Source: Paenibacillus mendelii
Lineage (GTDB): Bacteria; Bacillota; Bacilli; Paenibacillales; Paenibacillaceae
NCBI RefSeq assembly: GCF_042433605.1
Contig: NZ_JBHLVF010000032.1
Length of the DNA: 32,000 nt
Strand: one strand, 5' to 3'
Below are positions 1 to 3,000 of the stretch, piece by piece (position 1 is the first letter of the stretch; each line of letters starts with the position of its first letter). The position numbers were made by a program.

Positions 1-3000
1 GCGCTCCTTTTTTTACAAAGCTCATTTCTTAAGCTCTACAGGATTGTTTAGTTCAATAAACGTACTTGGAACCAAGCCCCCAGAATGTATAATTATAGGT
101 GTTTGGATACTGTATAAGATGCTTAGAACGATTAATCCAATCTTTTAGTTTTTCCGATTGAGCTGAAATTTCTACCTTATCTAACAACATCGATAACTTG
201 ACTATTTCATCAATTTCTCCTGACCTAACGATGTCTCCTATGAAAACGTAGAGACTGCTGAGAAAAAATGAAATGTGTCTGCAGTTTTCGTCCTCGATAT
301 TTTGTGAGCATGTAAAAAGGATCCGCCGCGGCGGATCTTTCTGCTGTTTTATTGAGCTATCGTGTCCCGTTAGTTGAATGATTTTCTGAATTAATCACTG
401 AAATTTTTAAACAGAGACTCCAACTCTTTAACATCGTAAAAGTTTCCATCGTTGATAAATTTTTCAACCTCTACTGTACAATCTTCCAAAAATTCTATCT
501 CCCACCGTTGACCTGGAATAGCTACCTCAACCATGATAGCTTCATTTCGGACTTTGTTTAGTTTATAAAATATATTATTATCCTCTAATTTGTTCAGAAA
601 AGTAATTAACTCTTTTAGACCAGCCACATCTTCACCCCACAGTAAGCATGTTACAAATTATATTATAAACCCTTGTGGCATTATCCTGCCAGTTAGCTTA
701 CTGCCGCGGCAAACTGCTCCTTGTTTCGTTCAACTATAGTGTCCCGTTAGCGTAGCGATTGGTTAGAAAAATATCTGATCCATTATCATTTTTCGAAAAA
801 GGTTCTGACAACACGTACTATTATGGTAATACCGCATGCTGCAAAAATAATAAAACCTAAATATCGGAATATACTTTCAACATGATCTAAAACACCACTC
901 CAAAAAAAGAAACTCGGTATAGGCATTAGCAGTAGAACGGTACCGACAACAAAGCCATAGAAAAATATCCGAGTGTTGTCTTTGCTCATTAATAAAGCCA
1001 CCTTTCAAAACCTAGACTGCCGCTGCTGTTATTGAGCTATCGTTTCTCTTTAGCTCAATGATTTGGTCGAACTTATTAAGAGATTTTGCTGGTCTAAGCC
1101 CATTAATGAATCTTGACAACTTCATTTGAAAAATTCCTCACAATTATTTGATACTCAATTAAATATACATTACCGTCCATATTTCGCTCTAAATAATCCA
1201 ATAGTCCCGTTTTCGTACATATTGAACACCACCTCTTCTGTCCATCATTAAATATAATGGAGATCTCGATATGTTCTAATGAATTCGCACTTGAATCCTT
1301 AACTACATCGTCAAACTTCCAGCTAACTATTACGGGGACACTAATCCCAGGACTTACGAAATAATACTTCTTAAACCACCTTGATCGGTTGTTATCACCC
1401 TTGATTTTAAACTGTTCTTTTACTTCATCCTCAGCTATCACTTCATATTCCTTGCCACGAGTCAAAGCTTCTAAATAAGGACCAACGTCATTACAAACTA
1501 CAATTTTGCTAGACATTTTTTACACCCTCATCATTCTAGACCATTTATTAGTGCTCGAAAATAAGTATACATCAGTTGTCCCATGCTGCGTTAAACTGCC
1601 CGTTAGCATTCGTGAGAAAACTAAATCGTACTGAGGGAGTTTAATAAAAGGTCGTCTAATCATCTTTATTTGCCGATGTCGATGACTTCATATCGGTAAT
1701 GTAACAATGTTCTTGTCATCAGTCGGGAATGTTATCAAGTTCTTGTCATTGTGTTTTGACAAGAACTTGATAACATAAATATAAAAAGCCGCATAATCAG
1801 CGGCTTCTAATGTTACAATGTTTTTGTCACCCGACATTTTACAATGTCGTGGATGACAAGAACACGTCCTTAAGCGTTTCTCTTGCGTCTCCTTATGCCG
1901 CGGCAAACTGCAAATCAACACGGTGTAACTTTAATGTCTCAAACGCATATTGCAATACGAGTTGTGTCATCTCTGTTCCAAGACCGCTACCCCATAAAGA
2001 CGGGTCAAATATCCCCGTAGCATACCTTGCTCTGTGGTCAGTTTCATCCACCGTGAGACGAGCGAGACCAATGCAGCGCCCCTCAAATTCTACGGACCAA
2101 CATAATTTACGCGAAATCATGTCTTGATAAAAAGCTTCTACGTCCTCCATAGTGAAGACTAAGCCCACTATACTAATCACAAGTACAATCCATGCCCAAG
2201 AAGAAGCATTTCCGCTCCCAAGCCCTAACAAAGTGCCTAGTAGTATTACTGAAAAAGCTACAATTACGATCTTTCCCATCTGTCTCCTCCTGAGCCTCTT
2301 GACCTATTGTTTTACTATAACAAACATATCCTAATTTCCACCACTAAACAACACTTAGCACAAAGACGGCTCTCTCGATGGTGTTTCTATTTGATTAACA
2401 TCGTGGTTCTCATATATATGAACGATGATGTAATTGACGAGATTCATAATATAGCATTAAAGAACGTGAACGATTTGTACACATGATGCTGACCACTCTC
2501 AGGCTTCATGTTAGTTGGTGGACCAAGGCACATGATACAGCGATATCAAACCCTAAATTGACTCTTGCTGTAAATAATGATTCACGAAATTGCATGGTGA
2601 CAAGTGCTGAAGGTTCAACCCATCCAATGCTATAAATAAAGCGGAAAACAAAGCTCTTATTAAGGAATAATCTATTAAACACCTTCAATTTATGATATAC
2701 TTTGAGAAAGCCCTTTTTTAACTGTGGTGGTTTTGGAAGGGTCCGTTGAAACTGTCCTGCATTGGACAGTTTCTATTTGTTTACCGGCATATAGGGGTCC
2801 CGCCAACATTTTAACGAAAATATACGCTAAGCCCTCGGACGTGATCGACTTGGCGTTTTTTCTTACACTCTAAGCTGGTCCGAGTCGTACTACCCGGAGC
2901 ATCGCTGTTTAATCTCCTTAACTTAATGAACGAAAAATATTTGTAGATCCCGCCGTCGGATGGCAAGAATTATTATCCGTGTATAACCAATGAGTCACTC

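Follow-up and report, generated by a model that had tools for sequence, protein, structure and literature searches.

The window, that is, the whole 32,000-nt stretch of Paenibacillus mendelii DNA analysed here, contains the end of one array of small genes separated by conserved sequence boxes (348-1616), one isolated module of the same kind (15839-15935) and one cassette disrupted by an IS66-family element (20497-23214). On the gene strand, which is the minus strand of the window, the order is gene, A box, hairpin, B box, about 100 nt and then the next gene. The coordinates are collected in Table 1. The window also holds a van-type resistance cluster.

Table 1. Boxes, hairpins and associated genes in the 32-kb window
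Feature	Position	Strand	Remarks
Terminator-like hairpin (GGATCCGCCGCGGCGGATCC, then T run)	305-340	-	Downstream of A box 348-383
A box (AATCATTCAA CTAACGGG ACAC GATAGCTCAAT)	348-383	-	3' of 78-aa gene; 39.3 bits
Cassette ORF, 78 aa	391-627	-	No Pfam family
B box, B2 type, one-mismatch core (TAAG CTAACTGG CAG GATAATG)	671-706	-	5' of 78-aa gene; 27.0 bits
Half type-1 hairpin (AAACAAGGAGCAGTTTGCCGCGGCAG)	698-724	-	5' arm and loop; 3' arm deleted
A box	725-760	-	3' of 71-aa gene; 34.9 bits
Cassette ORF, 71 aa	786-1001	-	Membrane-like
Degenerate A box (ATTGAG CTAAAGAG AAAC GATAGCTCAAT)	1028-1063	-	30.8 bits; followed by no hairpin or B box
Frameshifted cassette gene	1050-1516	-	ORF 1103-1516, 137 aa; homologues 154-171 aa
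B box, B1 type (GAATG CTAACGGG CAG TTTAACGCAG)	1581-1616	-	29.7 bits
GACAAGAAC element	1638-1863	-	Five ~20-nt repeat copies in both orientations, plus terminator hairpin; adjoins B box
Truncated GNAT acetyltransferase	1893-2279	-	Covers Pfam model positions 32-117 of 138 only
16-nt type-1 hairpin fragment (GCAGTTTGCCGCGGCA)	1896-1911	-	Fused to truncated GNAT gene; exact repeat of 702-717
Complete module	15839-15935	-	Downstream of gene at 15945-16784
B1 box of this module	15839-15874	-
Intact type-1 hairpin of this module, with T run	15875-15912	-
Degenerate A box of this module	~15905-15935	-
Exact core CTAACGGGCAG with preceding hairpin segment	20497-20540	-	3' end of small gene interrupted by IS66
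IS66-family element (tnpA, tnpB, tnpC-like ORFs)	20650-23075	+	Inside interrupted cassette; GTAAGCG termini
Weak B2-like box (CAAG TAACGGG CAG GATACTTCC)	23179-23214	-	5' end of IS66-interrupted small gene; 12.9 bits

The first-pass annotation of this DNA had described a family of repeated modules, based in part on an 11-mer, CTGCCCGTTAG, judged to be far above chance. This 11-mer has three exact and two one-mismatch copies in the window, all on the plus strand, against 0.43 expected, and none of 100 shuffles reached five copies. Position-weight matrices for the A and B boxes, trained only on copies from other genomes, recovered the family in the window, whereas shuffled sequence gave 0.07 A matches and 0 B matches. 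The family is thus real, both by its box cores and by matrix recovery, but not every copy listed for it belongs. The GCTAACGGACAC copies at 31411 and 31566 are sub-threshold on both matrices, have only an 8-mer in common with the boxes and are unrelated, and the copy at 20497-20507 has the exact 11-nt core but a sub-threshold full box score. An Rfam search of the window gave an unrelated T-box as the sole match above its own family threshold, and no credible match in 31.0-32.0 kb.

Two related sites of ~28 bp share the motif as their invariant 8-bp core, which reads CTAACGGG on the gene strand and CCCGTTAG on the plus strand of the window. The A box, 3' of a gene, has the consensus ATTAAG-CTAACGGG-NAAC-GWTAGYTSAAT; the B box, 5' of the next gene, has the consensus TTAAG-CTAACGGG-CAG-TTTAACGCAA or -GATAGTTGAA. 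The information content of each box is limited to ~27-28 nt, and a second conserved arm sought beyond the box was not found. Both sites consist of imperfect inverted arms of ~10 nt flanking a 6-7-nt spacer (GGG-NAAC in the A box, GGG-CAG in the B box), which is the layout of a tyrosine-recombinase core site; the core-adjacent arm sequences are variable, and B1 has no clean palindrome. Paired A and B boxes are direct repeats with the common 8-bp core, 57-75 nt apart, with a hairpin between them whose sequence varies and whose pairing is kept. These hairpins are strong, often terminator-like, of several interchangeable types and located outside the conserved core. The TGCCGYGGCA/TGCCGYGGCAAAC hairpin (exact at 702 and 1896, one mismatch at 15887), previously listed as part of the module, is just one of these types. 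Using MAFFT and RNAalifold, the variable hairpins could not be aligned and only a small A-box palindrome emerged; the hairpins were folded individually instead. The earlier term "3' junction module" fits the A box but not a two-box unit whose B box belongs to the 5' side of the next gene; likewise, the statement that a copy lies just downstream of each gene applies to A boxes and not to B boxes. The real copies are intergenic, as had been claimed, except the A box at 1028-1063, into which a frameshifted gene runs, up to its true stop codon.

For the hairpin at 305-340, a terminator scan gives a minus-strand site at 337-320, and the RNA fold has -18.4 kcal/mol (z = -2.8). In the copy at 671-760, one hairpin arm had been reported missing, and comparison with intact copies (15875-15912 in the window, and those in the comparison loci L007, L008 and L018) confirmed that the 3' arm is lost and folding with it (z = 0.1). 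For the neighbouring 71-aa ORF, Paenibacillus mesophilus has a DNA homologue with 79% identity (L003, 7503-7777); at one end, this homologue adjoins a CCGTTAG core (7514). Alignment of C-termini placed the true stop codon of the next gene within the A box at 1028-1063, the missing end of the 137-aa ORF (...LDQQNLLISSTKSLS*) being encoded out of frame, to ~1050. About 73 nt upstream of the start of this ORF lies the B box at 1581-1616, which contains a 19-mer found exactly in 35 Paenibacillaceae loci. At the upstream end of the array, the place of an A box and hairpin is taken by the GACAAGAAC element, which is also next to a B box, 72-96% conserved, in L028, L037 and L039; L025 has the element without an adjoining box, and L044 has two copies beside B boxes, one of them split by an IS200-like element. 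As the first-pass annotation had noticed, the GNAT gene is truncated at a module piece. Its ORF ends ...VDLQFAAA*, and homology to a full-length relative, a cassette gene between boxes in L033, stops at 1911, where the 16-mer common with the hairpin at 702-717 starts.

The isolated module at 15839-15935 has a B1 box scoring 45.6 bits and folds with -33.9 kcal/mol (z = -4.5), the right arm of A pairing with the left arm of B. At 20497-20540, a CATCCATGC-hairpin-GCACCAC segment comes before the core on the gene strand; this CATCCATGC hairpin type is also present in L012, L018, L024 and L032 and at IS110 ends. The IS66 element that interrupts this cassette (Pfam TnpB_IS66 and DDE_Tnp_IS66; right end matching L138) is outside the box system and marks the cassette as an insertion-rich accessory locus.

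The boxes form a family across the Paenibacillaceae, of which the window is one local sample. The 19-mer of the B box, CGTTAAACTGCCCGTTAGC, is exact in 37 genome stretches, 35 of them from Paenibacillus, Cohnella, Pristimantibacillus or other Bacillales, with ~4 matches expected by chance (2 x 596 Gb / 4^19). The A-box pattern was found in at least 120 metagenome stretches, and 1.02 Mb of box-selected flanking DNA contains 396 exact cores against ~31 expected. Viral contigs gave 1 match to the B1 pattern and 11 to the A-box pattern; an annotated phage collection gave no match. Within arrays, modules recur every 0.4-1.5 kb, all co-oriented and with the genes on one strand; a co-oriented ORF lies upstream of 148 of 167 A boxes and downstream of 111 of 135 B boxes. 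The array genes are accessory and diverse (GNAT, glyoxalase, pentapeptide, APH, beta-lactamase, HTH and many unknowns), and 269 ORFs gave only ~23 small similarity clusters. The recurrence at borders of accessory genes that had been claimed from the window alone therefore extends to many species, where boxes bracket single unrelated accessory genes in co-oriented arrays. Modules are also present on three P. urinalis plasmids, on which an array-linked integrase was not found. On one plasmid the boxes are single and in both orientations, a distribution closer to that of a dispersed repeat than to one integron-like platform; their density there, 8 per 40 kb, compares with ~7 per 32 kb in the window. 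In full-text literature searches, neither the motif nor arrays of this type were found described for Paenibacillus. Both Paenibacillus and Cohnella live in association with soil, plants and insects, and their accessory genomes are large.

IS110-family elements also insert at the conserved core. Transposase ORFs of this family are present in 13 loci, and 14 IS110 ORFs were examined. Two kinds of IS110 terminal sequence adjoin CCCGTTAG at nine of these loci, and at 8 of the 14 ORFs they lie at a fixed position, starting no more than 1 nt after it; the first 33 nt of these end sequences belong either to the IS or to a hairpin type.

The window contains no site-specific recombinase, as the first-pass annotation had stated (the transposase at 21650-23041 is that of IS66). 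The search it had recommended was nonetheless successful in related genomes, where a module contains a candidate, a 280-aa Xer-like tyrosine recombinase. It has more than 100 homologues, 75-93% identical, in Paenibacillus, Cohnella and Bacillus sp. FJAT-28004, including species and contigs with the 19-mer. Its linkage to the boxes is fixed: an A-type box lies 89-102 nt before the ATG in all six contexts fetched, between-species homology of the locus starts at this box in the four loci aligned, and in three of the six contexts the stop codon is followed by a hairpin and B-type box. The six recombinase loci contain 35 exact cores, all co-oriented with the recombinase, and the genes flanking it vary between species. 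The leader folds over the ribosome-binding site (z = -2.9 and -5.0), and the module is composed of A box, RBS-sequestering leader, recombinase, hairpin and B box with the core CTAAAGGG.

All homologues contain the phage integrase catalytic domain (PF00589) and so belong to the tyrosine recombinase superfamily, and the R..K..HxxR..H..Y residues can be read in the 280-aa protein in the motifs GCRVGE, KGSKQR, HRFRHT, LGHEK and QIYAQL. Its best solved relative is XerD (1a0p, E = 5e-31). However, the protein is below the NCBIfam cut-offs for XerC, XerD, XerA and IntI: it is not a housekeeping XerC/XerD (182-192 bits vs. cut-offs of 330-335), nor an IntI (82-94 bits vs. 265 for TIGR02249, with a length of only 280 aa). 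Only two copies were present in the ~1.4 Mb of loci, and the gene is absent from nearly all box-bearing loci, including the window; it would thus have to act in trans, genome-wide and on plasmids. Besides this family, the only tyrosine recombinases in these mostly box-flanking loci were a few unrelated integrases. The ones in L044 and L140, which share only 26-29% identity with the 280-aa family and with each other, were set aside as unrelated neighbours. A weak IntI-like match in L007 came from the SAM-like N-terminal ORF of an IS91-type (Y2) element, truncated at a box, and such an element was rejected as the cognate enzyme since its homologues (L040-L043) are without nearby boxes.

Evidence for mobility comes from one cassette that is present in four unrelated contexts with ~91-92% identity. 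The homology begins at the B core and reaches the left arm of the A site in three of the four contexts (the core being intact in L086 and L108 and lost in L010); in L026, divergence sets in ~90 nt earlier. The hairpins on both sides of this cassette differ between contexts, and other cassette pairs behave in the same way. A duplicated cassette in L008 begins at the B core, truncated genes adjoin module pieces, and solo B boxes move together with cassettes. Of the homology breakpoints, 17% fall no more than 15 nt from an exact core, compared with 1.4% of random positions; that the share is only 17% counts against exchange at the core. A near-identical strain pair differing by one cassette exactly at the cores was sought and not found, and two strain indels (L102 vs. 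L127, L054 vs. L068) were rejected as cassette events, both being in coding DNA away from boxes.

These data lead us to propose that the A and B boxes are, on balance, probably the recombination sites of the Paenibacillaceae-specific 280-aa Xer-like recombinase and delimit exchangeable cassettes. Strand exchange, with the crossover within the shared core, would release the segment between two boxes, whether gene or hairpin, as a circle with a single box, which could be re-inserted at another box. Entry of a B-type circle into an A-type site would give the observed order of B box, gene and A box. Repeated exchange would build co-oriented arrays of single-gene accessory cassettes, each shuffled unit bringing its own terminator and some an ECF-type promoter of their own, and the short A-hairpin-B modules would be miniature relatives of the recombinase-bearing module. 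In addition, many hairpins are predicted to serve as intrinsic terminators that insulate the cassettes, and a subset of B1 boxes would supply the -35 element for promoters of ECF-sigma type (GCAAC, 16-17 nt, CGTC). More tentatively, the whole may be an undescribed cassette-capture system of the Paenibacillaceae, analogous rather than homologous to integrons, with a recombinase in its own module, ~28-bp A/B sites with an 8-bp core, and insulated single-gene units shuffled over chromosome and plasmids. A defined 28-bp site with a small recombinase is a directly testable system, which could serve as a recombination tool. The boxes are in addition a practical marker of accessory-gene boundaries and assembly breaks in these genomes, and they explain the landing places of several IS110 (bridge-RNA type) elements.

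A different explanation, which we regard as rather doubtful, is that only the short A-hairpin-B modules are mobile, as REPIN/RAYT- or MITE-like non-autonomous miniatures of a ~1.1-kb recombinase element, and that the genes are immobile, their mosaic arrangement arising secondarily via homologous or illegitimate recombination between repeats. With an A box on one side and a B box on the other, the recombinase resembles an autonomous copy with its own ends, which agrees with this, as does its being usually single-copy and well conserved, like RAYTs. The occurrence of modules singly and scattered, and on the plasmid in both orientations, and the recurrence of hairpin types across species irrespective of neighbouring genes point the same way, and IS110-family insertions are known to target REP repeats (PMC1525189, PMC2817692) as they do the modules here. 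However, a MITE was rejected because the box ends are direct rather than inverted repeats, with no terminal inverted repeats seen and no target duplication outside the shared core. Furthermore, genes in new contexts keep their own box halves (B right arm 5', A left arm 3'), as core exchange of the genes themselves would predict, and both the travelling of solo B boxes with cassettes and the strictly co-oriented arrays with one gene per unit argue against immobile genes. A Y1 (HUH) RAYT gene flanked by the repeats was not found in the loci, which contain only two Y1 genes: that of L044 is the IS200-like insertion in the GACAAGAAC element, and that of L045 has no adjoining boxes.

It is improbable that the boxes are a purely regulatory or structural repeat without a role in recombination, i.e., a terminator plus promoter or a protein-binding element of an accessory regulon, such as that of an ECF sigma factor. 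Boxes are always oriented in the direction of transcription, and most hairpins are strong, many having A and T runs like intrinsic terminators; most modules, including 305-340 and 15875-15912 in the window, have a GC-rich stem and T run on the gene strand directly 3' of a gene. B1 boxes ending in GCAAC have CGT 15-17 nt further on in 9 of 11 cases (1.8% at control offsets), an ECF-type promoter pattern. However, the promoter-like pattern is confined to a minority of B boxes, and several hairpin types, e.g., GAGGCTGCCG...CGGCAGCCTC, lack a U tract. A regulatory repeat also leaves unexplained the between-species homology breaks at cores, the truncated genes adjoining module pieces and the boxes framing a tyrosine recombinase at fixed distance in six species. 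Plain intrinsic terminators have no flanking boxes conserved across genera, whereas here the boxes flank the hairpin and remain where it is broken (671-760) or missing (1028-1063). The earlier preference for a cassette-exchange site over a plain terminator is supported by the comparative data, recombination itself being deduced from sequence, with the amendment that many hairpins are terminator-like nonetheless. Other regulatory or uptake signals were rejected: a SigB -35 (GTTTAA) since no -10 element follows, a LexA box (GAAC-N4-GTTC) as it occurs in some A boxes only, and a DNA-uptake or Chi-like sequence by its uneven distribution.

A classical integron remnant, i.e., a CALIN with canonical attC sites of an IntI whose integrase is missing, is very improbable. 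Although the layout recalls the old "59-base element" (two simple sites and a variable centre), the arms contain AAC and GTT triplets and the small array genes look promoterless, on both strands the boxes have the order GTTAG...CTAAC, opposite to that of attC (RYYYAAC...GTTRRRY). In addition, each module has two exchange points, the A and B cores, against one at R' in attC, the linked recombinase reaches 94 bits on an integron-integrase model with a cut-off of 265, and integrons are essentially absent from Firmicutes (PMC4889954, PMC9024848). It is equally improbable that the boxes are tails common to orphan immunity or toxin cassettes that follow a polymorphic-toxin gene: some array genes do belong to immunity-like families (SMI1_KNR4, DUF1963, DUF4303, WapI) and the window genes are small and of unknown function, but the toxin gene whose presence the first-pass annotation had raised was not found near any array, nor a toxin C-terminal fragment before arrays in the annotated loci, cassette genes are mostly enzymes, regulators and transporters, and the boxes are non-coding and on both sides of genes.

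Among known systems, REP/BIME and REPIN-RAYT repeats resemble the boxes in being dispersed intergenic hairpin repeats at gene 3' ends, in their mosaic module combinations and in the single conserved enzyme gene flanked by the repeat. However, the enzyme here is a tyrosine recombinase rather than a Y1 HUH transposase, the conserved parts are flanking direct-repeat boxes rather than the palindrome, the 19-mer is the same in different genera, unlike the usually species-specific REPs, and the genes between repeats behave as exchangeable units.

Tandem accretion and CIMEs at att sites offer a second comparison, in which the A and B boxes behave as attL and attR with a shared core, a solo B box resembles an empty attB and the short modules resemble deletion derivatives of the recombinase element; arrays could arise via successive site-specific integrations. 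In contrast to CIMEs of tens of kilobases, the unit here is one gene or ~95 bp, without conjugation or mobilisation genes, and the sites are outside the ends of tRNA or housekeeping genes, in many copies over chromosome and plasmid.

The pdif modules of Acinetobacter plasmids are gene modules bounded by ~28-bp XerC/XerD sites (arm, 6-7-nt spacer, arm); most have no adjacent recombinase, and the same module is found in different contexts. The present modules share these properties: they are discrete, have ~28-bp Xer-type sites, mostly lack a recombinase beside them and occur in varied contexts. However, pdif sites occur in alternating orientation and conform to the host dif consensus, whereas the boxes are all direct repeats accompanied by a dedicated Xer-like paralogue. 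A dif or pdif site was rejected because, although the architecture fits, the arm polarity is wrong. The boxes gave no match to the Bacillus dif arms in the right polarity, and compared with the dif sequences of E. coli and B. subtilis, the likeness of TTGCGTTAAAC to the XerD arm exists in the wrong polarity only.

Integrons are the textbook example of a device that stockpiles and shuffles accessory genes, and the present arrays share with them and with CALINs, as a functional resemblance only, co-oriented arrays of single, mostly small and diverse accessory genes, each bounded by a conserved recombination-type site. Further likenesses are a tyrosine recombinase that is linked to the array and has a site immediately 5' of its gene, the occurrence of duplicated cassettes, sites with conserved ends and a variable centre, and the presence of IS110/IS1111-type elements and group II introns at or near sites. 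The differences concern nearly every component: the recombinase is a 280-aa Xer-like protein rather than IntI, and its gene lies within a module in the orientation of the cassettes; instead of folded attC hairpins, there are ~28-bp core sites of the double-stranded type, whose 8-bp core is invariant; the arm polarity is reversed, with two exchange points per junction (A and B); and the junctions carry terminators and some promoters, which makes the cassettes separate transcription units. The host clade, moreover, is the Gram-positive Firmicutes. If the proposed cassette-exchange reading is true, the long-noted lack of integrons in this phylum would be filled by a different machine, and recombinase-linked cassettes in Paenibacillus and Cohnella would show the same solution evolved from different parts.

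The window, with a G+C content of 45%, belongs to a Paenibacillus-type contig; it matches the first 32 kb of NCBI record JANHOF010000029.1, and about 4 nt of the contig lie ahead of it. CTGCCCGTTAG is present in three exact and two one-mismatch copies, on the plus strand only, against a chance expectation of 0.43, and TGCCGYGGCAAAC occurs exactly at 702 and 1896. The minus strand carries the small genes of the left end (391-627, 786-1001 and 1103-1516) and the GNAT fragment (1893-2279). Because these small genes all lie on the minus strand, the repeat is described on this gene strand, where its 8-bp core reads CTAACGGG.

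The copies at 1589 and 15847 have the 19-mer CGTTAAACTGCCCGTTAGC in common. A scan for this 19-mer, with each species represented by a single genome, gave 37 matching stretches, 35 of which belong to Paenibacillus, Cohnella, Pristimantibacillus or other Bacillales; about four chance matches were estimated, and the other two, in other phyla, are probably chance. Alignment of the flanks of these matches gave a composite module, i.e., an A box 3′ of one gene, a hairpin, and a B box 5′ of the next. The A box follows the pattern ATTAAG-CTAACGGG-(G/T/A)AAC-GWTAGYTSAAT. B boxes are of two types, B1 with the pattern TTATTAAG-CTAACGGG-CAG-TTTAACGCAAY, and B2, which is the same up to the core and continues with CAG-GATAGTTGAAT and similar sequences. 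The information content is limited to ~27-28 nt in each box. Every copy has a stable hairpin. Its sequence belongs to one of several unrelated types, which are met with in more than one species; many hairpins have A and T runs resembling bidirectional terminators, and one type lacks the T run. At least 120 further stretches in metagenomes match the A-box pattern, Aneurinibacillus has related modules of greater divergence, and three P. urinalis plasmids carry modules, with both orientations present.

Position-weight matrices trained on foreign copies only, which gave essentially zero matches on shuffled sequence, were run on the window, and the matches are listed in the table. The first-pass annotation, which had noted a motif recurring at the borders of accessory cassettes, was largely correct; its copies at 31411 and 31566 do not belong to the box family. 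The window contains three pieces of the box system, i.e., an array end, an isolated module and a cassette disrupted by an IS66-family element. The isolated module forms a single long hairpin in which the right arm of A pairs with the left arm of B (fold -33.9 kcal/mol, z = -4.5). The copy at 671-760 has lost the 3′ arm of the hairpin and with it the folding, and the copy at 20497 shows only the exact 11-nt core.

Boxes and pieces of the box system in the window (boxes are position-weight matrix matches)
Feature	Position	Remark
A box	348-383	
A box	725-760	
A box	1028-1063	degenerate core
B box	671-706	
B box	1581-1616	
B box	15839-15874	
B box	23179-23214	weak
Cassette-array end	348-1616	capped by separate GACAAGAAC element and truncated GNAT
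Isolated module	15839-15935	
IS66-disrupted cassette	20497-23214	

Several other features were observed in and around the window. The GACAAGAAC element (1638-1863) is a conserved stretch of ~200 nt with five copies of the TGACAAGAACWTKRTNACAT repeat, including a perfect 20-bp inverted pair separated by 8 nt, and a terminator hairpin. It recurs, with up to 88-96% identity to another species, in the comparison loci L028 (6694-6850), L037 (6094-6255), L039 (2547-2690), L025 (2545-2716) and L044 (9200-9300 and 10395-11310, with an IS200-like element inserted inside), and in five of six genomes a B box follows it closely, L025 having no box beside it. A MITE, a transposon end and an operator cluster are possible readings of this element. 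The gene at 1050-1516 is frameshifted: its 137-aa ORF (1103-1516) represents a family of 154-171-aa proteins of unknown function with members in Aneurinibacillus, Ammoniphilus, Lysinibacillus, B. thuringiensis and Marininema; the C-terminus that the ORF lacks can be read out of frame and ends within the degenerate A box. A 279-aa ORF (15945-16784) directly upstream of the isolated module contains a 12-nt-periodic repeat (16377-16520), Lys/Ala/Glu-rich in appearance, and matched no Pfam family, the lone match being spurious low-complexity. The IS66-family element (20650-23075), with three ORFs and GTAAGCG termini, lies inside a small box-bounded gene, and a clear 8-bp target duplication was not recognised.

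Further along, an ABC-transporter operon and an AraC-like gene are separated by an apparently GC-rich non-coding stretch of ~600 nt (31100-31720). This stretch has the two arms of a 23-nt inverted repeat at 31411-31433 and 31555-31577, and showed neither a credible Rfam match nor kinship with the box family. A van-type cluster (6341-12450) encodes VanW, D-lactate dehydrogenase-like, D-Ala-D-Ala ligase-like, M15 peptidase and glycosyltransferase proteins, and a 417-nt duplication (5765-6177 / 7819-8235, 93% identity) seems to be an incomplete copy of the M15 peptidase region. The usual partner of a T-box is an aminoacyl-tRNA synthetase or amino-acid gene; a T-box leader on the minus strand (27026-27241, 108 bits) is unusually paired with an 850-aa ORF downstream (24284-26836, minus strand) that has PKD and Ig-like domains.

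In other genomes, the boxes follow one another in the same orientation, each interval holding a single small gene on a fixed strand relative to the box (e.g., L008, L012, L013, L015 and L032). The 156 box-selected loci (1.02 Mb) contain 396 exact cores (201 A, 150 B and 45 other) vs. ~31 expected by arithmetic. Of 167 ORFs upstream of A boxes, 148 share the orientation of the box, with a median stop codon-to-core distance of 47 nt; of 135 ORFs downstream of B boxes, 111 do so, with a median core-to-start codon distance of 98 nt. The cassette genes are diverse and accessory, including GNATs, glyoxalases, pentapeptide proteins, APH, beta-lactamase-type proteins, regulators and many unknowns, and hardly any families are formed across loci.

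The same cassette was found in four unrelated contexts (L010, L026, L086 and L108) at ~91-92% identity. The similarity starts at TTAAG-CTAACGGG-CAG in all four and extends to TTTATTGAA, the left arm of an A site, in three, L026 departing ~90 nt earlier; L086 and L108 keep the CTAACGGG core of this site, which L010 has lost, and the hairpins flanking the cassette differ on both sides. Like behaviour was observed for L007/L015, L015/L020, L010/L026, and L032 vs. three metagenome contigs. Since the hairpin travels with neither neighbouring gene, each junction has two exchange points, A and B. An exact core is at most 15 nt away for 17% of the 206 homology breakpoints that have space to either side, vs. 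1.4% for random positions. L008 contains a duplicated cassette that begins at the B core, and an N-terminal SAM-like ORF of an IS91-type (Y2 transposase) element in L007 (551-772) is cut off at a CCCGTTAG box, its intact relatives in L043 running on into a Y2_Tnp ORF. The truncated GNAT of the window, where a module piece had been reported at the truncation point, indeed loses similarity to the full-length, box-flanked GNAT of L033 at 1911, the start of a 16-nt type-1 hairpin piece. The comparisons caught no excision or insertion event, and two strain-level indels that were checked showed no relation to boxes. The earlier reading of the motif as a cassette-exchange or recombination site is supported.

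A tyrosine recombinase was sought in the first 300 kb of box flanks and none was found. In the larger locus set, L077 carries one of 280 aa, with an A box on one side and a B-like box on the other. More than 100 homologues came up in a protein search, almost without exception 280 aa long and with identities of 75-93%, the named ones all being from Paenibacillus, Cohnella, 'Bacillus sp. FJAT-28004' or a Bacilli metagenome-assembled genome. The homologue shares a contig with L018 in P. eucommiae and a scaffold with L008 in FJAT-28004, and P. radicis and P. mangrovi have both the homologue and the 19-mer. The catalytic residues are present, and the nearest proteins are XerD and XerA; against the NCBIfam models of XerC, XerD, XerA and integron integrase, the 280-aa protein scores far under the cut-offs.

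Six recombinase contexts were compared (L077, FJAT-28004, P. eucommiae, P. spongiae, Cohnella lupini and P. albus). All six have an A-type box 89-102 nt 5′ of the recombinase ATG, with the core exact in four, one mismatch in one and degenerate in one, and in the four aligned loci between-species similarity begins at this box. Three of the six have a hairpin and a B-type box with the core CTAAAGGG after the stop codon. All 35 exact cores in these loci are co-oriented with the recombinase, whose neighbour genes are different in every species. The order of A-type box, recombinase, hairpin and B′ box indicates that the recombinase gene fills the place of the hairpin segment in the module. The conserved leader between the A-type box and the gene folds to sequester the ribosome-binding site; in L179 (8812-8901) and L180 (9920-10012), AAAACCUCU pairs with AGGGAGGUUUU around an inner hairpin whose stem differs in sequence between the two species with the pairing kept. 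This predicted burial of the ribosome-binding site suggests that the recombinase may be under translational control.

The only recurrent mobile-element genes near boxes are IS110-family transposases (13 loci). The ends of these DEDD elements abut CCCGTTAG with two kinds of terminal sequence, one in L029 (1163-2760), L025, L019, L024, L161 and L048, and the other in L021, L128, L095 and L056. IS110 and IS1111 elements likewise abut REPs and attC sites (PMC1525189, PMC11187229). A further CCGTTAG copy lies inside the non-coding IS110 ends at boxes, as expected if a bridge or seek RNA were programmed for the box core. Where a B1 box ends in GCAAC, CGT comes 15-17 nt later in 9 of 11 cases, vs. 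1.8% for controls, and the pattern GCAAC, 16-17 nt, CGT(C/T/A) is found in L008, L011, L018, L020, L028, L029, L032, L039 and others. This spacing looks like an ECF-sigma (sigM/sigX/sigW-type) promoter with its -35 element inside the B1 box.

The boxes have an arm-spacer-arm layout, as in tyrosine-recombinase core sites, and a recombinase-driven cassette model, which is drawn from sequence comparison, is regarded as somewhat probable. In this model, a circular gene segment with a B-type site would recombine with an A-type site at the shared core to give B box, gene and A box, which matches the order seen. The A box just 5′ of the recombinase would offer a natural point of entry, and the recombinase module would have miniature relatives in the short A-hairpin-B modules. 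That only these A-hairpin-B modules are mobile, as miniature elements, is considered rather doubtful. Purely regulatory or classical explanations retain little probability.

Full-text literature searches found no description of the box motif or system. The site architecture resembles that of pdif modules, whereas orientation and sequence are unlike. Dispersion, mosaicism, a single repeat-framed enzyme gene and IS110 targeting are shared with REP/BIME and REPIN-RAYT systems, which differ in enzyme class and in which parts are conserved. Like integrons, the box system combines single-gene cassette arrays with a linked tyrosine recombinase; however, this recombinase is not IntI, the sites are reversed in polarity with two exchange points, and the junctions bear terminators. 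The box system thus works like an integron, yet is not an integron. Integrons are reported to be essentially absent from Firmicutes (PMC4889954, PMC9024848).
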